This document shows positions 289-26,602 of a stretch of 64,000 nt of DNA, one piece after another (the first letter of the stretch is position 1; each line of letters begins with the position of its first letter). The notes below the pieces were generated by a model. It saw only the letters and a program-made list of their open reading frames with translations, made no database searches and was not told the DNA's origin. The DNA is taken from assembly GCA_943350765.1 (NCBI GenBank), contig CALRAJ010000002.1:72951-136950 (forward strand), written 5' to 3'. Origin of the DNA: Candidatus Tayloriibacteriota bacterium (GTDB lineage Bacteria; Patescibacteriota; Minisyncoccia; Phycocordibacterales; PALSA-1337). The translations under genes were made by a program, and so were the position numbers.

Positions 289-346
289 TTAAAAGTCCCT
301 AAAAAGCTTGGAGATTGAAGTCATTTCTGTTAGTATGGACTAACTT

Positions 347-2143
347 ATGGATTTAAAGCATATACGAAACTTTAGTATTATTGCTCATATAGATCATGGT
401 AAGTCCACCCTTGCCGATCGTATGCTTGAGATTACAAACACTATAGAAAAGCGTAAAATGCAGGAACAAGTCCTCGATAGTATGGAGCTGGAACGCGAGC
501 GAGGTATTACAATAAAAATGCAACCAGTGAGGATGAAGTACCTGCTCGATGGACAAGAATATATATTAAACCTTATCGATACTCCAGGACATATCGATTT
601 CTCATACGAAGTATCCAGGGCTTTAAAGGCAGTGGAAGGCTCGATTTTGCTAGTTGATGCCACGCAAGGTGTCCAAGCACAGACCATGACTACGCTAACA
701 ATGGCTCGGGAATCAGGGCTGACTATTATCCCCGTGATAAGCAAGATTGACTCGCCACTTGCTCGGGTGGCTGATGTAAAAGGTGAGGTCTCAAAACTGC
801 TCGGTGTCTCGTTTGAGGATATATTGGAGGTATCAGGTAAAACTGGAGAAAATGTCGATCTACTTTTAAAAGAAATTATCAAAAGAGTACCACCACCACA
901 TATTCCTGTCGGTACCGAAAAGGCTTTCCAGTCACTTGTTTTTGATTTTCAGTATTCAAATCATCGTGGTGTGATTGTGTATATTCGGGTATTGTCAGGT
1001 CAGGTTACTCGTAATACGGCATTGGTTTTCAAAATCGCAAATGAGACTTTTAACGCAATAGAAGTGGGAATATTTTCTCCACAAGAAGTGCCGATGGAGT
1101 CTATTGGGGCTGGTGAGATCGGCTATATTGTAACAGGTATCAAACAGCCAGGTATTGCCTCGGTGGGAGATACTGTAGCATACGAACGAGATACCCTACC
1201 TCCACTTTCTGGATATATGAAGCCAAAGCCAGTGGTTTGGGCATCCGTCTATCCAGAAAGTCAGGATGATTTTACATTACTCAAACAGGCGCTCAGTCGC
1301 CTTTGTCTTTCGGATTCATCTTTTACACATGAGGAAGAATCGTCTGGATCACTGGGTCGTGGTTTTCGGTGTGGTTTTCTCGGTATGCTTCATCTCGAGA
1401 TTATTACTGAGAGACTTCGTCGGGAGTTTAATCTAGAGCTTATTGTAACCACACCTAGTATTACTTATGAAATCGATTACATAAATGGTAAAAGAGACAT
1501 TGTCTATTCTCCGTCAAGATTTCCAGATGATCATCAGATTAAGACTATTTTTGAACCTTGGGTAGATATTAGGATTATTGTACCAGCACAATATCTCGGG
1601 GCGATGATGCAGGCACTCTATGACCACGAGGCAGAAATCGGCGACTCCGAAAACTTTGGCGATAATAGAAATGCTTTGACTATTAAAATGCCACTACGCG
1701 AGCTGATGCGAAACTTTTTTGATGAAGTAAAAAGTATTACTTCTGGTTATGCGTCAATATCCTATGAGCTAGGAGAAATGCGTGTAGCGGATGTGGTAAG
1801 GCTCGATATTTTAGTAGCTGAGGAAGCTGTACCCGCTTTTTCTAGAGTAGTATCTAAAAGGCGAGTGCAGGAGGAGGCTGAACAGGCAGTGGGTAAGCTT
1901 GCTAAGGTACTTCCTCGGCAAATGTTTACCACTAAAATACAGGGCGTGGCACTTGGGAGGATTCTGTCATCTGAAACACTTACAGCACTTCGCAAAGATG
2001 TGACCCAGCATATGTACGGAGGAGATATTACTCGAAAAATGAAACTAAGAGAAAAGCAAAAAAAGGGTAAAAAGAGAATGCAAGAGACGGGCAAGGTAAA
2101 TATTCCTCATGATGTCTTTTTGAAAATGGTGAAGAGTGAGTAG
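347..2143 (+). CDS. lepA: Elongation factor 4 (LepA), translational GTPase
   Basis: N-terminal G domain [25 protein letters not shown], overall 598 aa LepA architecture. Confidence 0.95.
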   Translation: MDLKHIRNFSIIAHIDHGKSTLADRMLEITNTIEKRKMQEQVLDSMELERERGITIKMQPVRMKYLLDGQEYILNLIDTPGHIDFSYEVSRALKAVEGSILLVDATQGVQAQTMTTLTMARESGLTIIPVISKIDSPLARVADVKGEVSKLLGVSFEDILEVSGKTGENVDLLLKEIIKRVPPPHIPVGTEKAFQSLVFDFQYSNHRGVIVYIRVLSGQVTRNTALVFKIANETFNAIEVGIFSPQEVPMESIGAGEIGYIVTGIKQPGIASVGDTVAYERDTLPPLSGYMKPKPVVWASVYPESQDDFTLLKQALSRLCLSDSSFTHEEESSGSLGRGFRCGFLGMLHLEIITERLRREFNLELIVTTPSITYEIDYINGKRDIVYSPSRFPDDHQIKTIFEPWVDIRIIVPAQYLGAMMQALYDHEAEIGDSENFGDNRNALTIKMPLRELMRNFFDEVKSITSGYASISYELGEMRVADVVRLDILVAEEAVPAFSRVVSKRRVQEEAEQAVGKLAKVLPRQMFTTKIQGVALGRILSSETLTALRKDVTQHMYGGDITRKMKLREKQKKGKKRMQETGKVNIPHDVFLKMVKSE

Positions 2144-2149
2144 GGTATA

Positions 2150-2288
2150 GCAAATTATTAAATTTCTTTCTTAGCATATCTTTTAAATAGCACGAGTATT
2201 TCTTTGGTAAGAAATCTCTCAAGTCTCAGCTACCCGCTTCCGAAGTCTATTTAAAAGATACGCTTGCGACGAAATTTAATAATTTGCT
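2150..2288. mobile_element. MITE-like element copy 1 (subtype A core; perfect 18-bp TIR agcaaattattaaatttc)
   Basis: TIRs agcaaattattaaatttc / gaaatttaataatttgct; core gcacgagtatttctttggtaagaaatctctcaagtctcagctacccgcttccgaagtc is shared with the copies at 18157, 35029 and 53406. Confidence 0.75.
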
Positions 2289-2331
2289 ATGTTTTGTGAT
2301 GGTTGGTATGAAGGAGTGATGACTATTTTAA

Positions 2332-2375
2332 GCCACATTCAAAGGCTAAACAGGGTGTTTAGCCTTTGAATGTGG
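2332..2375. repeat. H-family hairpin variant (GGCTAAAC...GTTTAGCC)
   Basis: ccacattcaaaggctaaacagggtgtttagcctttgaatgtgg palindrome. Confidence 0.7.
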
Positions 2376-2580
2376 CTATATAGAGACATATTTAAAAAAT
2401 TGGCTTTAAACTGTAACTACCTATATAAAAACGGTGAATAAAGCAAGATCATGCTTATGATAATCAATACCGAAATAATGACCGAAACTACATTTAGTAC
2501 CTTTTTTGTTTTGTGATGAAATAGCATGGGTTTTATATCTTTTATGTTATCTTTTTGAATATGTAGTATAATATCATAAA

Positions 2581-2955
2581 ATGCTAGAATTTCAAGTAAA
2601 AAAAAGATTTAAAAGAATACTTTATTCTCGAGCGATGATCGTAATACTTATGATTGTTATTGTTTTTGCTATTAAAGCCACATGGAGTGTTTATAAAAAA
2701 CAGCAGACCAGCAGGATGAACCTAAATAGATTACAGCTGGAAATATCAGAATTGAAACAACGCGAAGATTATATAAAATCTGGTATTGATCGTCTTGGTA
2801 CGGATAAGGGGGTGGAAGAGGAGATTAGACAAAAGTTTAAGGTTGTCAAAGATGGTGAATCAATGTCGATACTTATCGATGATGAACAGGTCATGGCCAC
2901 TTCTTCCTCGCCAGAAAAAGGTTTTTGGTCTACAATTGCTGATGTGTTTCGGTAA
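2581..2955 (+). CDS. Septum formation initiator family protein (FtsB/DivIC-like): N-terminal TM plus coiled coil
   Basis: TM helix MIVILMIVIVFAI followed by a coiled-coil LQLEISELKQREDYI and an EEEIRQKFKVVKDGE motif typical of FtsB/DivIC. Confidence 0.5.
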   Translation: MLEFQVKKRFKRILYSRAMIVILMIVIVFAIKATWSVYKKQQTSRMNLNRLQLEISELKQREDYIKSGIDRLGTDKGVEEEIRQKFKVVKDGESMSILIDDEQVMATSSSPEKGFWSTIADVFR

Positions 2956-3008
2956 AATGTATATGATGGCCTAAAGCGGGCTTTGCTACGCCGAAGCTTT
3001 GAGCTATG

Positions 3009-3079
3009 GCGAGTGTAGTATAGTGGTAATACGTGTGCTTCCCAAGCATATGACGCGGGTCCGATTCCCGCCACTCGCA
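3009..3079 (+). tRNA. tRNA-Gly (anticodon CCC)
   Basis: Hand-folded cloverleaf: acceptor GCGAGTG/CACTCGC, D-stem GTAT/ATAC, anticodon stem TGTGC/GCATA with loop TTCCCAA, T-arm GCGGG-TCCGATT-CCCGC, discriminator A. Confidence 0.8.
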
Positions 3080-3125
3080 CAAAATGAGCGTCGAGAGGCG
3101 CTTTTTTGCTATACTTACTGTACCT

Positions 3126-4385
3126 ATGCCCCCGCAGTCTGAAATTAAAAAAGTACCAAAACCAAAAGTAATTCTCCATATGGATGGCGACGCTTTTTTT
3201 GTCGGTGTTGAAGTTGCTAAAAATCCAAAACTCAAGGGGTTGCCAGTAGTAACTGGTGAGGAGAGGGGGATAGTCTCGGCACTTTCGTATGAGGCAAAAG
3301 CACTCGGCGTGGTGCGTGGTATGCCAATATTTAAAATTAAAAAAGATTTCCCAAAAGTAATTATTCTACCCGGTGATTATGCCTCATATATTCGCTACTC
3401 GGCTATGATGTTTGATATTGTGCGTCGATATGTTGATGATGTGGAGGAATATAGTATTGACGAATGCTTTGCGGATCTCACTGGACTCGACCGACCATTA
3501 AAAATGACCTATCTGCAGATAGCCGAGAGGATTAAAAATGAAATAAATAAAGAACTACAGCTAAGTGTCTCTATTGGCGTTGCACCTACAAAAGTACTCG
3601 CCAAGGTAGCATCAAAGTGGGTAAAGCCAAATGGCCTGACCTCAATAGATATTAAAACCGCCCCAGATTTTCTCGCCAAAACACCTATAGAGAAAATCTG
3701 GGGTATTGGCCCGCAGACTTCAGAGTTTTTGAAAAGAAGATGTATAGATACCGCGCATGATTTTGTAAGTAAAGATATAGCTTGGGTAAAACACAACCTT
3801 TCAAAACCGTATGAGATAATCTGGCAGGAACTTTCTGGTGTATCCCTGATGAATATCGATCCAATAAAAAAGACCGTCTATTCCTCAATGCAGAAAACAA
3901 GGTCATTTCACCCCGCTACCAACGATAAAAAGTTTCTTCTGTCGCAGATTTCTAAACATGTGGAGGATGCGTGCACCAAAGCTCGGCATTTCCACCTAGT
4001 GCCGAAAAAGATATCTATTTTTCTCAAGGACAAAGATTTTAAATTTACCACTGTTTCGATTCATGTTCCGTCGCCGACCAACGCTCCGGAGATTTTGATT
4101 TCTCTTGCTAAAAAACAGTTTGATAAAATGCATGTTCGGGGGACACTCTATCGTACTACTGGCGTTGTGTTGCAAGATCTTATTTCGGGTTTAGTCTCGC
4201 AAAACGATTTGTTTGGCGGTACTGATGAGGCACACAAATTCGAACGCATACACGCGCAGATCGACTCTCTTGAAAATAAGTTTGGTCGGCATGTTGTCTA
4301 TCTCGCATCCACACACAATGCCCTGAAGCAAAAGAAGGTGGGTACGGATTCAGATGATTTGGATAGAAATTTGCTATTTCTGTAG
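3126..4385 (+). CDS. dinB: DNA polymerase IV (Y-family translesion polymerase)
   Basis: ILHMDGDAFFVGVE catalytic N-terminus, typical DinB length. The ORF-track start at 3084 abuts the tRNA; the ATG at 3126 is preferred. Confidence 0.9.
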   Translation: MPPQSEIKKVPKPKVILHMDGDAFFVGVEVAKNPKLKGLPVVTGEERGIVSALSYEAKALGVVRGMPIFKIKKDFPKVIILPGDYASYIRYSAMMFDIVRRYVDDVEEYSIDECFADLTGLDRPLKMTYLQIAERIKNEINKELQLSVSIGVAPTKVLAKVASKWVKPNGLTSIDIKTAPDFLAKTPIEKIWGIGPQTSEFLKRRCIDTAHDFVSKDIAWVKHNLSKPYEIIWQELSGVSLMNIDPIKKTVYSSMQKTRSFHPATNDKKFLLSQISKHVEDACTKARHFHLVPKKISIFLKDKDFKFTTVSIHVPSPTNAPEILISLAKKQFDKMHVRGTLYRTTGVVLQDLISGLVSQNDLFGGTDEAHKFERIHAQIDSLENKFGRHVVYLASTHNALKQKKVGTDSDDLDRNLLFL

Positions 4386-4450
4386 TTTGTGACAAAATGC
4401 CAACTAACATATTTTAACCTCGTTGGAGGATAAGGTGATATACTAGCAAA

Positions 4451-5149
4451 ATGAATGAATATGAAAAGAAATTGTCTGATGAGGCATTCCGTTGGGTTAA
4501 GGCAAATCATCGTAAAATTATAGAAGAGTTTGCTGGAAAAGCGGAGCATGTCGCTGATAATCAACCAATTACACTTTTTATGGCAGGATCTCCTGGAGCG
4601 GGTAAGACTGAGGTGTCCAAACGCCTCATTTCTCGTTTTATACAGAAACCAGTAAGAATTGATGCGGATGAAATTCGCGGAATATGCCCTGGTTATGTCG
4701 GATCAAATGCACACATATTTCAAAGAGCAGCTACTAAAGGGGTTCATATTCTCTATGATTATTCGCGAGAAAATAATTTGAATGTCATTTTGGACGGTAC
4801 ATTTGCATATGCAGATGAACAGAAAAATATACAGGGGTCATTAGATCGTCAGAGAAAAGTCGAAATCTATTTTGTGTATCAGGATCCTTCGCAAGCATGG
4901 GATTTTACAAAAAAACGTGAAGAAATTGAGTATAGAAAGGTTTCTAAAAAAGTTTTCATTGATGCTTTTATCAAATCTCGCGAAAATGTTAACCTTGTCA
5001 AAAGTTATTTCGGAGATCAAATCGAGCTCAACCTACTTATAAAAGATTTAACGAGTGATATTGAACAGCTGGAGCTTAATATACTCCTTGTTGATAGTTA
5101 TTTGAAGAAGGTGTATACTAGGTATGAATTGGAGACATTGCTTATATGA
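4451..5149 (+). CDS. Zeta-toxin-like P-loop kinase (AAA_33/zeta_toxin family)
   Basis: Walker A FMAGSPGAGKTE, a downstream IDADEIRG motif and an NVILDGTF (hhhDGT) motif characteristic of the zeta toxin/PezT fold. Confidence 0.55.
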   Translation: MNEYEKKLSDEAFRWVKANHRKIIEEFAGKAEHVADNQPITLFMAGSPGAGKTEVSKRLISRFIQKPVRIDADEIRGICPGYVGSNAHIFQRAATKGVHILYDYSRENNLNVILDGTFAYADEQKNIQGSLDRQRKVEIYFVYQDPSQAWDFTKKREEIEYRKVSKKVFIDAFIKSRENVNLVKSYFGDQIELNLLIKDLTSDIEQLELNILLVDSYLKKVYTRYELETLLI

Positions 5150-5337
5150 TTAATAAAATCAAGTCCTACTTAGGGATTAAAGAGATAAAGGAGCCAACGA
5201 CTGACTTTTCGGCGTTTTTTCATAATGCTTCTTCTGCCCAGAAAAAGAAGCTTCTAACCGAGGTTGTACGCGAAGCGAATAAGGATCAAAGAGCGGTTAT
5301 TGAGCGGTATAATCGGAGGACTACAAAGACCATCTAA
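5146..5337 (+). CDS. Small hypothetical protein (63 aa) with ATGA-overlapped start, possible partner of the upstream kinase
   Basis: Translationally coupled ORF; no recognisable domain. Confidence 0.3.
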   Translation: MINKIKSYLGIKEIKEPTTDFSAFFHNASSAQKKKLLTEVVREANKDQRAVIERYNRRTTKTI

Positions 5338-5380
5338 TCGGTGGTTTTTGTTTGGCAAAGAATTCCAACGGCTTAGTGGT

Positions 5381-5419
5381 TGAACGGCTCAACAGGGCTG
5401 TTGAGCCGTTCAAATGGCT
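5381..5419. repeat. H-family hairpin repeat
   Basis: gaacggctcaacagggctgttgagccgttcaaatggct. Confidence 0.8.
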
Positions 5420-5485
5420 TGGTTGAGAGGTTTTTAGAGTATGCTAAAAAGTGGCTATTTGGTGTAAATTTGCTATGATATTGAG

Positions 5486-6091
5486 ATGAATGAAATTGTC
5501 TATATTCTTATAAACGAAGCTATGCCAGGGTATACCAAAATTGGTATCACTACTGATTTGAAAGCTCGTCTGAAGCAATTAAGTAATACATCTGTTCCCG
5601 TTCCTTTTGAATGTTTTTTCGCAAAAAGAGTTAAAGATGCGAGGGCTATTGAGAATAGAATGCACGCTGCCTTTGCAAAGGATAGAGTTGACAGTGGAGC
5701 AGGAAGAGAATTTTTTATGATCCCCCCAGAACAAGCTGCGGCAGCATTGAGTATGGCAGAGGGAGAAGATATTCAAATTGATTCAGAAAAAACGGAACAA
5801 GAAAAGGTTGCAATCGCTGAAATCACAAGTAGACGCCCCGTTTTCAATTTTTCATTGGTTAATATAAATCCAGGTTCAACACTTCAGTTTTATATGGACG
5901 AGATAATTACTTGTACAGTCGTCGATTCAAGAAAGGTTGAATTTAATGGGAAAATCGTCTCGTTGTCCTATGCTGCTATGCAAGTATTGGAGTCAAAAGG
6001 TTTGCACTGGAAGGCTGTTTCTGGTCCCGGTATATGGATGTTTGAGGGTGAGACACTGTATGCGAGACGTATAAGGATGGAGGCTGAATAA
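5486..6091 (+). CDS. GIY-YIG superfamily protein: N-terminal T5orf172 domain plus C-terminal DUF4357-like domain
   Basis: VYILINEAMPGYTKIGITTDLKARLKQL ... GREFF matches T5orf172; C-terminal W...G..W....LYARRIR matches the DUF4357 pattern. Confidence 0.6.
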   Translation: MNEIVYILINEAMPGYTKIGITTDLKARLKQLSNTSVPVPFECFFAKRVKDARAIENRMHAAFAKDRVDSGAGREFFMIPPEQAAAALSMAEGEDIQIDSEKTEQEKVAIAEITSRRPVFNFSLVNINPGSTLQFYMDEIITCTVVDSRKVEFNGKIVSLSYAAMQVLESKGLHWKAVSGPGIWMFEGETLYARRIRMEAE

Positions 6092-6102
6092 TTGTAAGAC
6101 GA

Positions 6103-6729
6103 ATGACACCACAAGAAAGTTTCCCCGATGTCTTTCGTGTTATCCTAGATCTTTCTTCTACTATATCTAAGAAGATAGATGATTATAAAAATAATATTGA
6201 AAATAATCCCAGTATAAAGAGGGCTTTTTATAATATAGATTTTGTTTATATGCACTCTATTGTACTCGATATGGGAAAGCTACTTTCAGTAAATAATAAT
6301 GATAGGTCTGGATTAAGGGGGTTGGAAAAGTCATCACCAGATAAATTTAAAAAAGATATAAGGATATTTAGGGATAAATATAAGGATGTAATTGAAAAAA
6401 TAAAAAGCAATAGAAATAGGATAATTTCTCATGTAGATATAAGTGATGAAGGACATTTTTCTAAAATGGGTTTTTCTGAGAAAGAAGTAAATAAAAAAGT
6501 CACTGACCTCAATGATCACTTCACATTTTTGTATGGGTTGAATAAATCATTGGTAGAATCATCTATCGAACATTGGAATAAGTTAAGATCAGAGTCTATT
6601 AGGACTGAAAGATATAGTCCTTCAGATTTTTCTAAGGAAGTAGATATTTTCATAATAATGATTAGAGAAATAGTATCTATTTCGTATAAAATTAATGTGT
6701 GTTATTGTGAAAAAACAAGACTTAAGTAA
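6103..6729 (+). CDS. Hypothetical protein in an AT-rich segment; possible HEPN-like (R-x5-H motif RNRIISH)
   Basis: Local GC content is markedly lower than the flanks; an Rx4-6H motif is the only recognisable feature. Confidence 0.3.
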   Translation: MTPQESFPDVFRVILDLSSTISKKIDDYKNNIENNPSIKRAFYNIDFVYMHSIVLDMGKLLSVNNNDRSGLRGLEKSSPDKFKKDIRIFRDKYKDVIEKIKSNRNRIISHVDISDEGHFSKMGFSEKEVNKKVTDLNDHFTFLYGLNKSLVESSIEHWNKLRSESIRTERYSPSDFSKEVDIFIIMIREIVSISYKINVCYCEKTRLK

Positions 6730-6805
6730 TCAGATCGTTTTTTATGCAAAACTCTCTGTGCTATAATATAATCCCTACAAAGTAATTAAATAAATTAAAA
6801 CAAGT

Positions 6806-7039
6806 ATGAAAAAAGTTACGATATACTCGACCCCAACATGCCACTACTGTAATATGGCCAAGGATTTTTTTAAGGCAAATAAAATTATTTACACAGAATT
6901 GAATGTGGCGACTGATTTAGAAAAGCGGAAAGAGATGATTGAGAAGAGTGGGCAAATGGGTGTGCCAGTAATCGATATCGGCGGGGAGATCATGGTGGGT
7001 TTTGATCAGTCGGCGCTCTCGAAGGCTTTGGGGATGTAA
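6806..7039 (+). CDS. Glutaredoxin-like protein (NrdH/Grx family, CxxC)
   Basis: YSTPTCHYCNMAKDFF active-site motif, 77 aa thioredoxin fold. Confidence 0.85.
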   Translation: MKKVTIYSTPTCHYCNMAKDFFKANKIIYTELNVATDLEKRKEMIEKSGQMGVPVIDIGGEIMVGFDQSALSKALGM

Positions 7040-7048
7040 AGGGGGGAT

Positions 7049-7090
7049 AAAAGCCCCGCGGGCGAGTACGCCCGCGGGGCTTTTATATTT
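7049..7090 (+). terminator. Rho-independent terminator
   Basis: GC-rich hairpin aaaagccccgcgggcgagtacgcccgcggggc followed by ttttatattt. Confidence 0.85.
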
Positions 7091-7140
7091 AGCAAAAAAT
7101 GTTATAGTCTTGTAGCAGAGCTTGTGCATTCTGTATCTAT

Positions 7141-7245
7141 TCTCCCTTTGTAAAGGGAGCACCGCCAGTACTCTGGCGTGGAGGGATTTGAAATCCAAAT
7201 CCCTCGGCTTGAAGCCTGCTCCCTTTAGAAAAGGGAGAACAATGC
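7141..7245 (+). repeat. Multi-hairpin structured element R, copy 1 (immediately upstream of tRNA-Arg)
   Basis: Hairpins CTCCCTTT-gtaa-AAGGGAG, GCCAG-tact-CTGGC, AGGGATTTG-aaatc-CAAATCCCT, GGCTT-ga-AGCC and CTCCCTTT-agaa-AAGGGAG; homologous copy at 62966-63062. Confidence 0.6.
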
Positions 7246-7250
7246 TAATA

Positions 7251-7322
7251 GCCCCTGTAGTTCAATGGATAGAACAATTCCGTCCTAAGGAGGAAATCCA
7301 GGTTCGATTCCTGGTGGGGGCA
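7251..7322 (+). tRNA. tRNA-Arg (anticodon CCU)
   Basis: Acceptor GCCCCTG/TGGGGGC (two G-U pairs), D-arm GTTC-AATGGATA-GAAC, anticodon loop GTCCTAA, T-arm CCAGG-TTCGATT-CCTGG; the 27-43 pair is mismatched. Confidence 0.7.
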
Positions 7323-7383
7323 CAACAAAAATATCCAAAGGATATCTTTTTGTTGCTACCCAGCCAGAATCGAACTTATCTTT

Positions 7384-8703
7384 ATGCCCCAACTCAATCT
7401 AACCAAAATCAAAAAAGTCTATTTCATCGGTATTGGCGGTATTGGTGTTTCTGCCATTACTCGTATGATGGCACTGTCTGGAAAAGAAGTCCGAGGCTCC
7501 GACATGAGTCTTTCGGAAGTTACTAGCGAGCTCACACGGCTTGGCATACATATCGACCACGGTCAGTCTATAGATTTGATACCAAAAGATACTGAGCTAG
7601 TCATCTATACTATCGCCATTGCAAGTTTTGACCCAAAGCTCATTGAAGCCATCGACGCCCGAGGTATCCCAAGAAAAACCTATCCCGAAATACTTGGTAT
7701 TATTTCCGCGGACAGCTTCACTATCGCCATCTCAGGTACTCACGGCAAGACGACCACCACAGCCATGACTGCGAAAGTATTTCTCGATGCTGGGCTAGAT
7801 CCGACAGTAGTCGTCGGCTCATTTTTGAAAGATCAAAAGAGTAATTTTATTGCTGGTAAGAGTAAATACTTTATCGTCGAAGCTTGCGAATACCGTCGTT
7901 CTTTTTTAAACCTCACCCCGACAATTTTGGTAATTACAAACATAGACAATGACCATCTGGACTACTACAAAGACATGGCGGATATTCAAAGTGCGTTTGC
8001 AGAATTGATTTCAAAAATCCCTCCGCACGGTGCAGTAATCTGTAATCCAAACGATCCCACAGTCGCTCCCGTCCTCAAAAAAGCATCTTGTAAAATTATC
8101 GATTATACTGGCTTTTTGTACCCGAGCCTTTCGCTCAAGGTGCCGGGTATGCATAATAGAAAGAATGCTTCTGCGGTATGGGCGGTGGCAGACCTGACTG
8201 GCATATCAGAACGAGTTACCAAAGCCTCATTAGAGGCATTTTCTGGCACATGGAGACGGTTTGAGTACAAAGGTACTACTAATGCAAACGCGGTCGTCTA
8301 CGACGATTACGGTCATCATCCGACCGAGGTAGAGGCGACACTAGCTGGTGCGAGAGAGTTGTTTAAGAAAAAGCGAATTATTGTGGTTTTTCAGCCTCAT
8401 TTGTATAGTCGCACCAAAGACCACTTGGCTCATTTCGGAACAAGTTTCAAGGACGCAGATTTGGTAATTATCTCTCCAATATATCCCGCCCGAGAAGTGT
8501 TTGATCCAAGTATTACTTCGGATATGGTGGTGTCCGAAATAAACAAAAATGGAGGTAAGGCTATGGCGGTCACTGATTTTAGTGAAGCACTTTTTTTTCT
8601 CACAAATGAGGCTAAAAAAGACGATGTCATAATCACTATGGGTGCTGGAGATGTGTATAAAATAGGGGAATCATTACTCGCTCCAGATCATAAAACTTTT
8701 TAA
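7384..8703 (+). CDS. murC: UDP-N-acetylmuramate--L-alanine ligase
   Basis: N-terminal VYFIGIGGIGVSAI...GSD Rossmann motif, Mur ligase central and C-terminal domains. Confidence 0.9.
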   Translation: MPQLNLTKIKKVYFIGIGGIGVSAITRMMALSGKEVRGSDMSLSEVTSELTRLGIHIDHGQSIDLIPKDTELVIYTIAIASFDPKLIEAIDARGIPRKTYPEILGIISADSFTIAISGTHGKTTTTAMTAKVFLDAGLDPTVVVGSFLKDQKSNFIAGKSKYFIVEACEYRRSFLNLTPTILVITNIDNDHLDYYKDMADIQSAFAELISKIPPHGAVICNPNDPTVAPVLKKASCKIIDYTGFLYPSLSLKVPGMHNRKNASAVWAVADLTGISERVTKASLEAFSGTWRRFEYKGTTNANAVVYDDYGHHPTEVEATLAGARELFKKKRIIVVFQPHLYSRTKDHLAHFGTSFKDADLVIISPIYPAREVFDPSITSDMVVSEINKNGGKAMAVTDFSEALFFLTNEAKKDDVIITMGAGDVYKIGESLLAPDHKTF

Positions 8704-8715
8704 AATATATTCGCC

Positions 8716-9405
8716 ATGGCTACTTTGTATATCGTCGCAACCCCCATAGGTAATCTCAAAGACATTACTTTTCGAGCTGTCGAAATATTAAAAACAGTTG
8801 ATTGTATCTTGTGTGAAGATACACGGACAACAAAAGTTTTGCTCAACACTTATGATATTCATGTGCCGACCATGAGCTATCACGCCCAGAGTGCTCTGTC
8901 TCGTACAGAGGATATAATCAGTATGCTCAAGGACGGCAAAAACCTAGCTTTAGTTTCTGATGCTGGCACGCCATGTATTTCTGATCCCGGATCCGCGTTA
9001 CTTTCCTTGGTACGAAAAGAATGCAATGAGGACGAGGTAATGATTGTGCCTATTCCCGGACCATCTGCTTTTGTAACACTTCTTTCTGCAGGAGGACTTG
9101 ATACTAGCTCATTTGTTTTTCTAGGTTTTCTTCCACACAAGAAGGGTAGGGAGACATTGTTCAAGGAAATAGCTACCGCACCACGCACGATGGTTTTTTA
9201 TGAATCACCTCATAGGATCATGAAGACCCTAGCCTCGCTTGCGAGTGTACTTTCGGATAGTCCACGAAGAGTACTTGTGGGTAGAGAATTGACTAAGCTG
9301 TTTGAACAAATTATTTCTGGAACAGCTGGGGAAATGTTTTCATACTTTGAAAATAATCCAGACAAGGTGCGGGGCGAGTTTGTGGTCGCGGTCGAGGCAG
9401 TTTGA
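8716..9405 (+). CDS. rsmI: 16S rRNA (cytidine1402-2'-O)-methyltransferase
   Basis: Tetrapyrrole-methylase fold: LYIVATPIGNLKDIT...ILCEDTR. Confidence 0.85.
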   Translation: MATLYIVATPIGNLKDITFRAVEILKTVDCILCEDTRTTKVLLNTYDIHVPTMSYHAQSALSRTEDIISMLKDGKNLALVSDAGTPCISDPGSALLSLVRKECNEDEVMIVPIPGPSAFVTLLSAGGLDTSSFVFLGFLPHKKGRETLFKEIATAPRTMVFYESPHRIMKTLASLASVLSDSPRRVLVGRELTKLFEQIISGTAGEMFSYFENNPDKVRGEFVVAVEAV

Positions 9406-9726
9406 GTGTATAATATCAGTTGGAGTGACTATATGAACCCATTTGAAACTATAGATTGCCTACTTTGTAGGCATATGTACGCTGACGCTTTACCCTTTGT
9501 AAAACTTTTACCAACAGCAACCGAGGATGAAAGGGTAAAAAAAGATAATTACCTCATCTGTAGCATTACGGGTTTGCTCGAGCTGAATACATCTGATGAT
9601 GTCAGGATGGCTGTAGATAGCTGGTACTTTTTGTCCGAAACAGATTTAAAAAGTCAGCTTAAAAAGCGAGAACTTTATGACGGTGTTCTTGCAAGGGTAA
9701 TCATTGAACACAGGCTTCTTGATTGA
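9406..9726 (+). CDS. Hypothetical protein
   Basis: ORF followed by a hairpin plus T-tract at ~9745-9775; no domain recognised. Confidence 0.3.
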   Translation: MYNISWSDYMNPFETIDCLLCRHMYADALPFVKLLPTATEDERVKKDNYLICSITGLLELNTSDDVRMAVDSWYFLSETDLKSQLKKRELYDGVLARVIIEHRLLD

Positions 9727-9845
9727 TTTTTTAATGATAAGCAAAGCTCTCTTAATTGGGAGCTTTTTTAATTCTTTTTTTGTAAATAGTGTCTTTTAAA
9801 AAAAGTAATGTATACTATGCTGTATATAAGCTTTAATATATTTGC

Positions 9846-10085
9846 ATGACAAGACAACAAATACTGGGCGTGATCGGTCTGTGGACACTAATACTTCCTT
9901 TTTTAGGTTTTCCGAATGATTGGAAGCTCAATATGGTTGCACTGAATGGTTTAATAATTTTGATTTTGTATTGGAAAATGAGAAAAGAGTCTCAGGCTAT
10001 TTCTATTAAGACAAAGAACCATGGCGCGGGTTTTGTTGAAAATTCAATAGCAGAGAAACCAAATCAAGCAAACACGGAGGAGTAA
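9846..10085 (+). CDS. Hypothetical small membrane protein
   Basis: Two predicted TM helices; no similarity recognised. Confidence 0.3.
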   Translation: MTRQQILGVIGLWTLILPFLGFPNDWKLNMVALNGLIILILYWKMRKESQAISIKTKNHGAGFVENSIAEKPNQANTEE

Positions 10086-10153
10086 AAAGAGTTTTTTAAA
10101 AATGGATATTTTGTGTAAAAAGAGGTAAATAGCCTTGATTAGAGGCTTGTTTT

Positions 10154-10193
10154 GCTTCAAAGGCTCAACGGTACACCGTTGAGCCTTTGAAGC
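10154..10193. repeat. H-family hairpin repeat
   Basis: gcttcaaaggctcaacggtacaccgttgagcctttgaagc. Confidence 0.8.
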
Positions 10194-10245
10194 AAAAATA
10201 CTCACACTGCCTTTGTTTTTTTTATTTTTATGCTATAATCACTCT

Positions 10246-10506
10246 ATGAATCCAGAGGATAAAGCGGTCTTACAAAAAGTACTTAAAATATCAAAGGATA
10301 ATCAAGAGATTCTAGAGAAACTTCAGCGTGCAAACCGCTGGTCAGTTGTCTTTAAGATTATTTACTGGGTGTTTATCATACTGGCGGCTGGAGGTGCATA
10401 TTTTGCTATAAAGCCTTACTCAGACCAGCTCGGGGACACTTATACTGGATTCAAAGCTGAGTTGGAAGGTGCCCACTCGGTAACAAACAAGATTTTTGGT
10501 AATTAA
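10246..10506 (+). CDS. Hypothetical small membrane protein; extended -10 box TGcTATAAT lies 7 nt upstream of the ATG (leaderless-type start)
   Basis: ATG at 10246 preceded by tgctataat at 10231-10239; one TM helix. Confidence 0.35.
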   Translation: MNPEDKAVLQKVLKISKDNQEILEKLQRANRWSVVFKIIYWVFIILAAGGAYFAIKPYSDQLGDTYTGFKAELEGAHSVTNKIFGN

Positions 10507-10594
10507 TCTCTTGATTTTTTGTTGTCCTCTTAGGACAACAAAATTTACACCTAAAATAGGGTAATGTAATGTTTAGTCGAATAAATTTGATTTT

Positions 10595-10667
10595 GCCAAG
10601 ATAGCTCAGTTGGTAGAGCGCTCCCCTGAAGAGGGAGATGTCCCCAGTTCGAATCTGGGTCTTGGCA
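10595..10667 (+). tRNA. tRNA-Phe (anticodon GAA)
   Basis: GCCAAGA-TA-GCTC-AGTTGGTA-GAGC, anticodon arm CTCCC-CTGAAGA-GGGAG, T-arm CCCAG-TTCGAAT-CTGGG, discriminator A. Confidence 0.9.
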
Positions 10668-10678
10668 CCGAAACAAAA

Positions 10679-10710
10679 CAAATCACCTCACCGCATGCGG
10701 TGAGGTGATT
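10679..10710. terminator. Bidirectional terminator hairpin between tRNA-Phe (+) and hsp20 (-)
   Basis: Perfect palindrome aaatcacctcaccgcatgcggtgaggtgattt. Confidence 0.7.
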
Positions 10711-10725
10711 TGTCCCTAACATCTT

Positions 10726-11187
10726 TTAAGTAGTCGATTTTACCCTTACCTTTGTCTGTCTACCTTTGTCTACTTTGGTCAATTTTAAAATAAGTAAACC
10801 ATGTTTTTCTATGGCCTCAGCTGTGTCTACTTCTACTTCCTGTGGAAGAGTAACGGTGCGCGAAAATGAACCCCAATACAGCTCACGATAAAAGAAGTCT
10901 TCCTCGCGGATATTTCGCTCTTCCTCCCTTTTACCACGGATAGTTACCATATCTCGAGTGATAGAAATATCTAAATCTTCGGGACGCACACCAGCAACCA
11001 TGGTTTTTAGGATTATTTTATCGGCTGTCTGATGTATATCAACAGTCAGCTCGCCGTCCTTGTCCTCTTCATCTAGCCAGTCTTCTTTTTTGGTTTCAGT
11101 TAATGCCACCTCCTCATTTTCAGAATTTTCATCAAGCTTGATTGTTCCTGTTAATCTTTCAAAAAATGATTTTTTTGTTTTTGACAT
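10726..11187 (-). CDS. Hsp20/alpha-crystallin family small heat-shock protein
   Basis: ACD-type beta-sandwich with ...GLLILKLTK... C-terminal motif; 153 aa. Confidence 0.75.
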   Translation of the reverse strand: MSKTKKSFFERLTGTIKLDENSENEEVALTETKKEDWLDEEDKDGELTVDIHQTADKIILKTMVAGVRPEDLDISITRDMVTIRGKREEERNIREEDFFYRELYWGSFSRTVTLPQEVEVDTAEAIEKHGLLILKLTKVDKGRQTKVRVKSTT

Positions 11188-11203
11188 AATTTTAAATAAA
11201 TAA

Positions 11204-11929
11204 TTAACTCGTCGAGCTGACTTTTTTCTGTGAATCTATTGACCGTGCCTTTTCAAAAAAGAGCATAAGGATTATTACACCTACCCATACCAAAGCAAAA
11301 ATCTTGAAAGTATCAATACCACTTGACTGTATTATAAATAAATTAAACGCAGCATGCAATGCTGTGGCGAGGATAACTCCAAAGAGTAAGCTTGTCCTCT
11401 TTAGAAGCTTTCCCTTGAAGAAGGTTAGTGAAATACTAAAACCGATTGTTGCTGAGGCAACAACATGAAGCAGGGTGGCACCAATAAAACGGAGATTACC
11501 ACTTATAAGGGCCTGGAGTGTATTACCAAGCTCAAGTGGCTTGAGTATAAAAAAGGTGTTCTCTAGTGCTGCAAAACCGAGTGCCACAGTGATCAGATAA
11601 ATCATGGCATCGATAGGCTCATCTAGGAAACGACTGCGCAGGGCAATGAAGTAGACGACTACAAGCTTCATAATTTCCTCAATACCAGCCCAAATAATAT
11701 ATTTGAGTGTGGTAGCATAAGCTAGGGTTGACCCATCGAGCAGGTCTAATACTAATTTTTGTAGTGGTAAAACAAGTGCTACTGAAAGCATTCCACCTAA
11801 AAATGAAAATGCTAGCAAGAGTCGTGGCTCAGGATGAAGGTTGTCTTCTTTTAACCAAAACCAAAGCCAAAGTATAGCTGGTAAAATACCAGCGAGTAGT
11901 GCGTAGAAAATCTCAGTAGTACTATCCAT
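11204..11929 (-). CDS. PrsW-family intramembrane protease-like protein
   Basis: Multi-TM with EEIMK (EExxK) and HAAFN motifs characteristic of the PrsW/YpdC family. Confidence 0.5.
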   Translation of the reverse strand: MDSTTEIFYALLAGILPAILWLWFWLKEDNLHPEPRLLLAFSFLGGMLSVALVLPLQKLVLDLLDGSTLAYATTLKYIIWAGIEEIMKLVVVYFIALRSRFLDEPIDAMIYLITVALGFAALENTFFILKPLELGNTLQALISGNLRFIGATLLHVVASATIGFSISLTFFKGKLLKRTSLLFGVILATALHAAFNLFIIQSSGIDTFKIFALVWVGVIILMLFFEKARSIDSQKKVSSTS

Positions 11930-11990
11930 GTCTAGTAGTATACCTTAGAGATTTTTTATAATCTATGTGTTAAAAGTGGTGATGATAATC

Positions 11991-14234
11991 CTATGCTGGC
12001 CAATTCTCCACCATTAGTAGATTTTGCTCTGTATTATGAGGTAAGGTGAGCCAGATTTCCTCGGTAACAAATGGGATAAATGGGTGAAGGGTTTTTAGAA
12101 TGATATGAAGGGTATGGATAAGTAATTGAGCTCGAGATGATTTTTCTGAGTCTGTACCCTTACCTTCGTTAACGGGAGGGGTACCTAGAATAGTCTTACT
12201 TTCCTCTACGATTTTATCCGCAAATGTGTGCCATGTGTAATGGTAAAGCTTTTCAGCAACAAGATATAGTTTGTATTCCTCCATTTCTCGGGTAATTTCT
12301 GTAATAAGTGCGTCTCGCTCAGCAACAAGTTTTTTGTCGGCTTCTGTCCATTTGGAAAAACCTGGATCGTATTTGTAGGTCTCGGTACTTGAAAGAATAA
12401 AACGAGTAATATTCCAAAGTTTGTTGGCAAAGTTTTTGTAGCCTTTGATTTTGTTTTCATCAAAGCTAATGTCGCTACCGATAGCTGTACCAGTCAAAAG
12501 TCCCATGCGTAGAGCATCAGCACCGTATTTGTTTATAATATCGATAGGGTCGATACCGTTGTTTAGAGATTTGCTAAACTTTTGACCATCTTTTGCACGG
12601 ACTAATCCATGTATCATAACTGTACGAAAAGGGACTTGTCCAAGATGAAAACCACTCATCATGATCATGCGTGAGACCCATAGGTTTAAAATCTCGTACG
12701 CTGGGGACATAAATGATGTCGGGTGAAATGTTTTTAAATCTTTTGTTATATCAGGCCAGCCCATGGTCGAAAATGTCCATAATCCTGATGAAAACCATGT
12801 ATCAAGCACATCTTCCTCCTGTACCCAGCCTTCTCCTTTCGGAGCCTCTATTCCGACATACATCTTTGTTTTTTCTTCGTTTCCAACTTTTAACTTTTCA
12901 CTTTCGACTTTCGACTTTCGTTTATACCATACTGGGATTCGATGCCCAAACCAAATCTGTCGGGAAATACACCAGTCGTGTAGATTTTCTATCCAGTGAA
13001 AATAGGCATTACGGAAACCTTCCTGTGGCATATTTACCTGTTCGCTTGATACCGCTTTTCTCATAATTTCTTTTAATGTAGTTTCAGTACCACTTTCAAT
13101 ACCTGGTATTTCTGAGTAGGGAATAATAAAGGGTTTATTTACTGCTATCCACCACTGCTTCATTATCTGTGGCTCGATGGTCGCACCTGTCCTCTCTGCG
13201 GTTGCAATGTTGTGGGTGTATTCCTCTTCTTTTACAATCAAACCTTTGGCACGAAGCTTCTCAACAATCTTTTGTCGAGCTTCGGTAATCTTTATACCAT
13301 AAAATTCACCAGCAATTTCCAAAAGCTTTCCATATTTGTCGATAATTTGTACCTTATCGAGCTTGTGGCGTTCGGCAATGTCAAAATCAACAGCACTGTG
13401 CCATGGTGTGATTGTCATAACACCAGTCCCAAATCCCATGTCTATCGCAGAATCTTTTATAACTGTCGCAGTAAGTGGACCATTGATCCATTCAAGCTCG
13501 ATTTTTTGACCATGCTTGTATTCTGAGTAACGCTCATCGTCTGGGTGCATTACAACGTGCTTGTCGCCAAACTTTGTTTCTGGTCGAGCGGTACCAATAG
13601 TAAAAGGTCCATACTTTAGGTAATAGAATTTGGTTTTTTCTTCTTTGTATGCAATTTCATCATCAGATATTGTGGTTTGACCTTTTGGATCCCAGTTTAC
13701 TATTCTGTCGCCTTGGTAAATAAGACCAGAATTATACATATTTACAAACGCAGTAGTAACGGCTAGTGTACGAGTTTCATCCAGTGTATAGGCATAGCGT
13801 GACCAGTCGAGTGACGCTCCCATTTTTCGAACTTGGCCTAAAATAGTGTTTTCACTTTCCTTTGCAAATGTACGAACGCGTTTGACCAGCTCGTCACGAC
13901 CGAGGTCGTGACGACTTTTACCCTCGTCTTTTTGAATGTTTTTTTCAACTCGTGCTTGGGTTGCAATAGCTGCAGAGTCAGTACCAGGGATCCAAAGTAC
14001 ACGCTTGCCACGCATTCGTTGAAATCGTATGACCGCATCCTGTAACGAGTCCTCATAGGCATGTCCGAGATGTAGTATGCCAGTAACATTTGGTGGGGGA
14101 AGTACGACGGTAAAAGTTTCGGAGCGTTTGCCCGGTAAGTTGTCTAGATTAAAAAAACCGCTTTCCTCCCAGAGTTTGTAGATCTTATCTTCTGTATCCG
14201 TTGGATTATAAGGTTTTAGGAATTTATCATGCAT
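11991..14234 (-). CDS. valS: Valine--tRNA ligase (short form lacking the C-terminal coiled-coil)
   Basis: PPPNVTGILHLGHA HIGH motif and KFSKS (KMSKS) motif. Start assigned to MHDKFLKPYNP rather than the ORF-track start at 14348. Confidence 0.9.
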   Translation of the reverse strand: MHDKFLKPYNPTDTEDKIYKLWEESGFFNLDNLPGKRSETFTVVLPPPNVTGILHLGHAYEDSLQDAVIRFQRMRGKRVLWIPGTDSAAIATQARVEKNIQKDEGKSRHDLGRDELVKRVRTFAKESENTILGQVRKMGASLDWSRYAYTLDETRTLAVTTAFVNMYNSGLIYQGDRIVNWDPKGQTTISDDEIAYKEEKTKFYYLKYGPFTIGTARPETKFGDKHVVMHPDDERYSEYKHGQKIELEWINGPLTATVIKDSAIDMGFGTGVMTITPWHSAVDFDIAERHKLDKVQIIDKYGKLLEIAGEFYGIKITEARQKIVEKLRAKGLIVKEEEYTHNIATAERTGATIEPQIMKQWWIAVNKPFIIPYSEIPGIESGTETTLKEIMRKAVSSEQVNMPQEGFRNAYFHWIENLHDWCISRQIWFGHRIPVWYKRKSKVESEKLKVGNEEKTKMYVGIEAPKGEGWVQEEDVLDTWFSSGLWTFSTMGWPDITKDLKTFHPTSFMSPAYEILNLWVSRMIMMSGFHLGQVPFRTVMIHGLVRAKDGQKFSKSLNNGIDPIDIINKYGADALRMGLLTGTAIGSDISFDENKIKGYKNFANKLWNITRFILSSTETYKYDPGFSKWTEADKKLVAERDALITEITREMEEYKLYLVAEKLYHYTWHTFADKIVEESKTILGTPPVNEGKGTDSEKSSRAQLLIHTLHIILKTLHPFIPFVTEEIWLTLPHNTEQNLLMVENWPA
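12896..12925. repeat. Heptamer tandem repeat (CTTTCGA x3) inside valS
   Basis: cactttcgactttcgactttcg; encodes KSKVESEK in a probable insertion segment. Confidence 0.6.
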
Positions 14235-26473: not shown

Positions 26474-26512
26474 GAACGGCTCAACAGGGCTGTTGAGCCG
26501 TTCAAATGGCTC
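26474..26512. repeat. H-family hairpin repeat
   Basis: gaacggctcaacagggctgttgagccgttcaaatggctc. Confidence 0.8.
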
Positions 26513-26562: not shown

Positions 26563-26602
26563 TTTCAAAGGCTCAACGGTGTACACTGTTGAGCCTTTGA
26601 AG
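26563..26602. repeat. H-family hairpin repeat
   Basis: tttcaaaggctcaacggtgtacactgttgagcctttgaag. Confidence 0.8.

Follow-up and report, generated by a model that had tools for sequence, protein, structure and literature searches.

We analyzed a 64,000-nucleotide stretch of contig CALRAJ010000002.1 (assembly GCA_943350765.1, positions 72,951 to 136,950, forward strand) from a Candidatus Tayloriibacteriota bacterium, hereafter called the window, and focused on four genes that lie between dinB and a glutaredoxin gene (grx). The Patescibacteria (Candidate Phyla Radiation, CPR) have tiny genomes, depend on hosts and are poorly characterized for toxin-antitoxin (TA) and anti-phage systems. We observed that the four genes form an accessory segment that differs from the closest relative. 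Taken as a whole, we consider it reasonably likely that the best explanation is a cargo hotspot in this lineage, in which the dinB-grx gap holds three independent, horizontally mobile conflict modules. The most interesting of these is the first, a cassette of a zeta-type kinase and a 63-amino-acid (aa) partner. The features of the locus are as follows.

4370..6774, no strand: variable dinB-grx interval of ~2.4 kb, bounded by the blastn homology break against the relative L001
4451..5149, + strand: module 1, zeta-toxin-family P-loop kinase, 232 aa, putative toxin (Pfam Zeta_toxin, AlphaFold2 fold)
5146..5337, + strand: module 1, 63-aa partner of the kinase, putative antidote, overlapping the kinase stop by 4 nt (ATGA)
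5380..5413, no strand: perfect hairpin with a 16-bp stem and a 2-nt loop, arms TTGAACGGCTCAACAG / CTGTTGAGCCGTTCAA
5486..6091, + strand: module 2, T5orf172 (GIY-YIG-superfamily) protein, 201 aa (Pfam T5orf172, PADLOC PDC-S57)
6103..6729, + strand: module 3, AbiU2-like HEPN protein, 208 aa, in the AT-richest stretch (borderline Pfam HEPN_AbiU2, R-N-x4-H)
3084..4385, + strand: dinB, Y-family polymerase, conserved core gene on the left flank (Pfam IMS, IMS_C, IMS_HHH)
6806..7039, + strand: grx, conserved core gene on the right flank (Pfam Glutaredoxin, E = 9e-19)
3009-3080 and 7251-7323: tRNA-Gly on the left flank; tRNA-Arg, with murC, on the right flank

The four open reading frames (ORFs) encode 232, 63, 201 and 208 aa and are separated by gaps of −4, 148 and 11 nt. 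These ORFs are as reported by a first-pass annotation, which had described them as wedged between conserved genes. The 65 nt between the end of dinB and the kinase start contain no small upstream ORF. Relatives of DinB in GTDB genomes place the organism as a Taylorbacteria-like member of the Patescibacteria. The nearest genome found was L001 (CALRBR010000001), whose DinB and glutaredoxin are 88% and 87% identical to those in the window. The two genomes were collinear over window positions 321-13904 (13.6 kb; blastn), and this collinearity was broken exactly at the four genes, where homology stopped at 4369 and resumed at 6775. The gene order in L001 is divIC, dinB, a 359-aa ORF, grx, murC and rsmI. 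The 359-aa ORF is the sole content of the L001 gap; it has a hydrophobic N-terminus and is unrelated to the genes in the window. None of the four genes was present in L001 (0/4), so the first-pass proposal of an acquired islet was not contradicted by conservation of the same genes at this site. No flanking direct repeats and no integrase were found at the islet, and both tRNA genes lie away from its borders. The homology break, together with the unrelated L001 ORF, suggests that the dinB-grx gap is a cargo-replacement spot.

The GC content was 0.26-0.29 across 6151-6900 compared to ~0.40 nearby, in agreement with the AT-richer stretch at 6.1-6.8 kb recorded in the first pass. This drop is not unique, because a comparable dip was observed at 2401-2700. 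The hairpin at 5380-5413, between the 63-aa ORF and the T5orf172 gene, had a fold z-score of −3.8. It had been described as part of a repeated family, and this description holds: the window contained 10 arm matches versus 0.28 expected. The core of the dispersed palindrome is TTGAACGGCTCAACAG-GG-CTGTTGAGCCGTTCAA(ATGGCT), a 40-nt palindrome. Full copies were found at ~150-179, 5380-5413 and 26474-26503, and further arm matches at 26586, 34156, 36592 and 48973. The terminator scan did not call the hairpin because no T-run follows it. The palindrome looks like a dispersed intergenic element of the repetitive extragenic palindrome (REP) type, which at this locus separates module 1 from module 2.

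We surveyed the neighborhoods of kinase homologs (L081-L087 on long contigs, L049, 80 metagenomic loci L099-L178 and four IMG/VR loci L179-L182), of homologs of the 208-aa gene (L088-L094) and of T5orf172 homologs (L095-L098, L183). A T5orf172 homolog or a 208-aa homolog was found near the kinase in none of the kinase loci, and the four genes were never found together in ~100 related loci. Homologs of the 208-aa gene were solitary and in varied contexts; the T5orf172 homologs were solitary as well. A single four-gene system was therefore rejected, as each of the three units (kinase pair, T5orf172 gene, 208-aa gene) was found without the others, and the survey indicates that the islet is a juxtaposition of three modules. 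The first-pass annotation had proposed one horizontally acquired TA, abortive-infection or defense module. The kind of islet that it proposed was upheld: the segment is accessory, and its three large genes are of toxin or defense types (zeta-toxin fold, T5orf172/PDC-S57 and probable AbiU2-like HEPN). Its treatment of the four genes as one module was not upheld.

The kinase matched Pfam Zeta_toxin at E = 9e-32 (110.5 bits; cut-off 22.3), and the GSPGAGKTE and ILDGTF signatures on which the first pass had based its zeta-toxin call were both present. The assignment was to the zeta family and not to a metabolic kinase family, the alternative raised at that time. The AlphaFold2 model of the kinase (32 homologs) had a predicted local distance difference test score (pLDDT) of 91.6. 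Its top Foldseek match in the PDB was zeta (1gvn_B, E = 5e-9, template-modeling (TM) score 0.70), followed by the complex of zeta with UDP-N-acetylglucosamine (UDP-GlcNAc, UNAG; 3q8x), PezT (2p5t), AvrRxo1 (4z8q) and the gonococcal zeta_1 (ng_zeta1; 6eph). Matches to 1gvn_B, 3q8x and 2p5t spanned E = 5e-9 to 3e-7 and TM 0.60-0.70; PFKFB and polynucleotide-kinase domains were lower-ranked structural matches. A single-sequence search of the kinase against PDB chains gave zero matches and a family profile was needed, which matched PezT at E = 3e-6.

We observed that the Walker A motif (G46-x-P-G-x-G-K52-T53) and D71/D73 were invariant in the 32 kinase homologs, as were D115-G-T-F-A119, R135 and R156/R162. 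In the profile alignment, D73 aligned with the second Asp of the PezT I-I-D-G-D motif, the catalytic Asp66 (PMC6362051). The invariance of G46..K52-T53 and D73 suggests that the ATP site and the catalytic base are conserved. The D115-G-T-F-A119 block aligned on E-G-T-L-R of PezT, such that the position of the GTxR arginine is taken by the invariant A119. This arginine is reported to be required for UNAG binding (PMC6362051). In the same profile alignment, the position equivalent to PezT Glu100 was His/Asn. The NCBIfam PezT equivalog scored the kinase at 14.8 bits (cut-off 470). We conclude that the protein is a zeta-fold kinase and, because the GTxR arginine is replaced by an invariant alanine, probably one that does not act on UNAG. 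The kinase family comprised at least 817 clusters at 90% identity and more than 445 metagenomic loci.

The start codon of the 63-aa ORF overlaps the kinase stop (ATGA at 5146), as the first pass had pointed out. We counted partners at kinase loci with at least 150 nt downstream (n = 89) by a six-frame hidden Markov model (HMM) search, in which L118, L129 and L145 were positive. A homologous ORF of 44-74 aa was found at −26..+18 nt of the kinase stop in 88/89 loci, with a 4-nt overlap in 50/83. The sole locus lacking a partner (L172) has a truncated kinase. The first-pass annotation had called this position unusual for an antitoxin. It is indeed unusual, yet it is the rule for this family, and AvrRxo1:Arc1 provides a precedent (PMC4938570). 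The shared motif was visible in the alignment of the small ORFs itself (71 sequences), with the conserved core dfs.FF...ss.ekkk....v.r.AN.dQr.l...y. Pairwise identities of kinase and partner co-varied (Mantel r = 0.71, 0/999 permutations), which indicates that the pair is inherited as a unit. The 63-aa ORF is a real gene and an obligate partner of the kinase.

We did not observe matches of the partner to Pfam, NCBIfam, PHROG or PADLOC at the thresholds used, and the best Pfam match at E <= 10 was at chance level (0.11). An exhaustive phmmer search of 1.84 billion representatives gave 106 partner clusters (50% identity), nearly all of them stand-alone proteins of 51-95 aa. Two proteins carried kinase remnants fused in frame to an intact partner: in P0363 (237 aa) the kinase part has two internal deletions; in P0360 (95 aa) only the N-terminal stub of the kinase is left. 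These two proteins suggest decay of the toxin with the partner kept.

The ORFs flanking the pair fell into nearly as many clusters as there were ORFs (230 ORFs, 210 clusters). No third partner recurs on this evidence, and the candidate of a third conserved partner was rejected. Defense-island enrichment around the pair was not seen in the Pfam assignments of 150 neighbors, and the few mobile or defense neighbors were EcoRI methylase, RhuM, SLFN helicase and GIY-YIG genes. Distant pairs (37-45% identity) were found on IMG/VR contigs. The pair adjoins tape-measure and tail-collar genes in L179 (GC 0.55), FtsK/SpoIIIE, Dcm and a rolling-circle Rep in L180/L181 (GC 0.38), and an ANT/KilAC antirepressor in L182 (GC 0.64). 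These contexts suggest that the cassette moves and is not confined to Patescibacteria.

At two further loci the surroundings of the pair include restriction-type genes. In L049 (139-1879), whose kinase is a 35% identical relative, the pair adjoins a fragment of an EcoRI-type methylase as well as an ORF of 363 aa, which by eye resembles DUF262-HNH (GmrSD-like) and received no tool assignment. In L085 (176-4850), it adjoins genes with SNF2, MutH and Dcm domains. These two loci had hinted at a functional link between the pair and dinB. This link was rejected: none of the 80 metagenomic kinase loci carried dinB nearby, and the kinase-dinB adjacency is thus a coincidence or a sampling bias.

Our analysis suggests that the kinase and its partner most likely form a type II toxin-antidote pair in reversed order, the antidote being encoded downstream. 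Several features argue for this reading. The pair is a self-contained, translationally coupled two-gene unit with no fixed genomic address. It is absent from the syntenic site of the closest relative and present on phages and plasmid-like elements. It combines a toxin fold and an intact active site with occasional toxin decay in which the partner is kept. Under this reading, we infer that the kinase would be toxic and might serve in phage defense. The kinase probably phosphorylates another essential nucleotide-type metabolite, the UNAG-binding arginine being lost, and the ~60-aa helical partner would bind and neutralize it. Loss of the cassette or phage-induced shut-off would remove a labile antidote, and the freed kinase would then arrest growth.

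Several observations weigh against the toxin-antidote reading. The kinase is conserved at 55-84% identity over hundreds of full-length 232-aa homologs. The Pfam assignments of the 150 neighbors are mostly housekeeping (aminoacyl-tRNA synthetases, ribosomal protein S7, ribosome recycling factor (RRF), RuvC and DnaB). The small-ORF HMM behind the 88/89 count was built from the same loci as those counted. No DNA-binding domain could be detected in the partner, which resembles none of epsilon, PezA and Arc1; its putative antidote role is therefore argued for by position and co-inheritance only.

The high conservation and the housekeeping neighbors keep a second explanation alive, namely that the kinase is a conserved enzyme of patescibacterial physiology and the small protein its regulatory or substrate-presenting subunit. 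A kinase of salvage or of the cell envelope, for example, could have drifted around a genome with little synteny. This explanation would account for the uniform length of the kinase and for catalytic residues that are all invariant, with one truncated and two decayed copies in ~90 loci/106 clusters. It would also accommodate the loss of the UNAG-specific arginine and the abundance of the family. A physiological enzyme is harder to reconcile with the empty syntenic position in the closest relative, the lack of any recurring neighbor, and the occurrence on phage-like and mobile-element-like contigs of high-GC organisms outside Patescibacteria. The nearest folds are all toxins, the two decayed kinases retain an intact partner, and TA cassettes typically show such a tight 4-nt overlap with a tiny partner gene. 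We therefore regard the physiological explanation as unlikely, though one to be taken seriously.

Our literature search found no description of the kinase-partner cassette and nothing pertinent on zeta toxin in Patescibacteria or on COG4185. We would give about even weight to the broader proposal that the toxin-antidote pair represents an undescribed and widespread family of reversed-order zeta-type cassettes. This family would have a new antidote family (core DFSxFF...EKKK...ANxDQR) and would poison a metabolite other than UNAG. It would be concentrated in Patescibacteria and also occur in phages and in rolling-circle or conjugative elements of high-GC bacteria.

The second module is the 201-aa T5orf172 protein. 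Its N-terminal part matched Pfam T5orf172 (E = 4e-16) and MUG113 (E = 7e-15), in line with the nuclease-type domain named in the first pass. The PADLOC search that the first pass had recommended returned a full-length match to the candidate class PDC-S57 (PDLC05041, E = 2e-64; residues 2-199 on profile positions 5-207 of 212). The further suggestion of a DUF4357-like C-terminus was rejected. Residues 100-201 gave zero Pfam matches at E <= 10, and DUF4357 was absent from the precomputed domains of the 120 T5orf172 homologs listed (0 of 120), which carried only PF10544 and PF13455. More than 208 T5orf172 homologs were found, solitary beside methyltransferase (MTase), resolvase or SLFN/ResIII genes; in L095-L098 the neighbors were an N6/N4 MTase, a serine recombinase (resolvase), and SLFN_AlbA_2 with ResIII. 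A 189-aa version (P0365; NCBI, ENA) lies in the same cluster, with the start region at 5486-5521. Homologs aligned over 100% of the query back the 201-aa start, which includes a GIY-like "VYIL" strand.

Module 2 is a free-standing putative T5orf172 nuclease, which may be of the defense kind or of the selfish homing kind. A homing-type endonuclease, with the islet arising partly from nuclease-driven gene conversion, would be consistent with the reported behavior of T5orf172 genes as homing-endonuclease-like elements in phages (PMC10448857). PHROG matches of the protein include homing endonuclease and endonuclease families, and its homologs are scattered singly in many contexts, some of them beside a resolvase. 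We nevertheless consider a selfish element doubtful: 2.9 million viral contigs yielded a single relative, the class matched over the full length is itself defined by embedding in defense systems, and neither a target-site duplication nor an interrupted host gene was visible. The defense assignment has a point against it as well. The PDC classes are 145 untested candidates, predicted from embedding in BREX, DISARM, type I restriction-modification (RM) and Hma systems (bioRxiv 10.1101/2024.01.29.577857).

The third module is the 208-aa protein. Its family comprised 17 homolog clusters, and all recovered loci looked patescibacterial in gene content. All 17 members (17/17) matched HEPN_AbiU2 in the same region at E <= 0.1 (best 2.2e-6), and PF18734 was precomputed in three relatives. 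The most conserved block was N103-R104-N105-x-I-I-x-H110. The R-x5-H motif seen in the first pass corresponds to R104...H110, which was invariant in 17/17 homologs, and N105 was conserved in at least 90%. HEPN proteins follow an Rx4-6H rule with a polar residue after the Arg (PMC3710099), and the motif here fits this rule with Asn after Arg. The model was all-helical (pLDDT 86.6); helix 94-111 ends in the motif and is followed by a floppy loop. In one lineage (L088-L091, ~4438-5615), the homolog of the 208-aa gene lies 47 nt 3' of an unrelated AAA_33/AAA_18 kinase of 162-171 aa with a weak Zeta_toxin match. This arrangement may be a coincidence or a second kinase-HEPN association.

These features make a solo AbiU2-like HEPN protein probable, with membership plausible rather than proven. 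The protein would probably be a metal-independent RNase of the abortive-infection type, acting alone. Three results count against this assignment and favor the alternative that the protein is an unrelated helical protein with a fortuitous R-x5-H. The window protein itself scored below the Pfam HEPN_AbiU2 cut-off (E = 0.006, 16.5 bits; cut-off 26.8). Foldseek gave no significant match of the model to solved HEPN structures in the PDB (E = 3.1, rank 30) or to BFVD viral proteins. PADLOC gave no match to the protein, and its family gave scattered weak matches only. A chance motif would leave unexplained why every homolog matches HEPN_AbiU2 in the same region, and why R104, N105 and H110 form the most conserved block, placed as in HEPN domains where a helix gives way to a loop. 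We regard a chance motif as improbable.

One integrated defense system, in which the kinase would be sensor or effector and would act jointly with the small regulator, the nuclease and the RNase, is very hard to sustain. The four genes are co-directional, tightly packed and all from conflict-type families, but ~90 kinase loci lack a T5orf172 or 208-aa gene, and the homologs of these two genes are each found by themselves in varied contexts. In addition, the kinase pair is set apart from the T5orf172 gene by a strong repeated hairpin, and the GC content of the 208-aa gene is sharply unlike the rest.

We made three further observations on the flanks. The longest dinB ORF begins 4 nt past the tRNA-Gly gene. 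In L001 the ortholog begins at the position matching 3126 of the window (MPPQSEIKK...), and therefore the true dinB start is probably 3126. A GC-rich palindrome (AAAAGCCCCGCGGGCGAGTACGCCCGCGGGGCTTTT) lies at 7043-7086, immediately 3' of the glutaredoxin stop, and is 95% identical over 39 nt in L001. This palindrome is likely to be the terminator of grx and to mark the right-hand edge of the conserved block. A second synteny break to L001 (window 9995-10211; L001 14494-16042) lies just upstream of a tRNA-Phe gene (10595-10669), with ~1.5 kb extra in L001, and is another variable spot.

Overall, our findings extend known families and do not overturn current ideas. In the kinase-partner cassette the gene order is reversed, the partner belongs to a new family and the UNAG motif is lost. 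Abundant in Patescibacteria, the cassette points to an apparent substrate switch. It offers a tractable two-gene system that can be cloned in E. coli, for asking what else zeta-fold toxins phosphorylate, and raises the questions of how a downstream antidote avoids toxin leakage and what role such cassettes have in ultra-small genomes. The other two modules supply natural examples of two weakly characterized candidate defense genes, PDC-S57 and the AbiU2-like HEPN.

Each module can be compared with a known system. Module 2 resembles PDC-S57 in consisting of one gene whose product starts with a T5orf172 domain and matches PDLC05041 over its full length. That class was defined by "guilt by embedding", whereas the gene here is not inside any BREX, DISARM, type I RM or Hma system; we found no literature on PDC-S57. 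Module 3 resembles the AbiU2 HEPN of lactococcal abortive infection (Anantharaman et al. 2013) in its Rx4-6H motif with Asn after Arg, its all-helical fold and its stand-alone gene, and HEPN_AbiU2 was the only Pfam family consistent across the 17 homologs. It differs in scoring below the Pfam cut-off, in its tiny family (17 clusters), and in lacking the Sel1-repeat or RM partners described for AbiU2 contexts (PMC3710099).

The kinase pair has its closest folds in epsilon/zeta and PezAT, the UDP-GlcNAc 3'-kinases (1gvn, 2p5t, 3q8x). It shares with them the Pfam Zeta_toxin domain, the Walker A lysine, the catalytic Asp of the I-D-x-D motif and, within the operon, a gene for a small helical partner. 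Their antitoxin is encoded upstream, whereas the partner here is downstream (88/89) and has no epsilon or PezA similarity. Their GTxR arginine is an invariant alanine here, and the equivalent of Glu100 is His/Asn. The kinase is also shorter, with 232 aa compared to 253 residues for PezT and 287 for zeta in the PDB chains. A second comparison is the Rv0366c-Rv0367c pair of M. tuberculosis, a non-canonical PezAT-like pair without GTXR, whose substrate may not be UNAG (PMC6362051). Both pairs have a zeta-family kinase that keeps the catalytic Asp and has lost the GTXR motif. The antitoxin of Rv0366c-Rv0367c is upstream and ParD-like, unlike the downstream partner here, which belongs to no known family.

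The third comparison is AvrRxo1:Arc1. AvrRxo1 is a zeta-like NAD 3'-kinase with Arc1 as a downstream antitoxin/chaperone, and avrRxo1 pseudogenes keep an intact arc1 (PMC4938570). In both systems a zeta-fold kinase is followed by a short co-directional ORF, neutralizing in the case of Arc1 and putatively so here. Decayed toxins beside an intact downstream gene have their counterpart in P0363 and P0360, and AvrRxo1 is among the top structural matches of the kinase. The systems differ in size (AvrRxo1 414-421 aa and Arc1 81-98 aa, compared to 232 aa and ~60 aa), and the TM of the kinase model to AvrRxo1 (0.55-0.59) is below that to zeta (0.70). The Arc1 motif KExFD(x25-27)(Y/L)ExxYY did not occur among the 71 aligned small ORFs, which have DFSxFF...ANxDQR instead. 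Given the missing Arc1 motif and a kinase half as large as AvrRxo1, the pair is analogous to AvrRxo1:Arc1 and not a member of that system.

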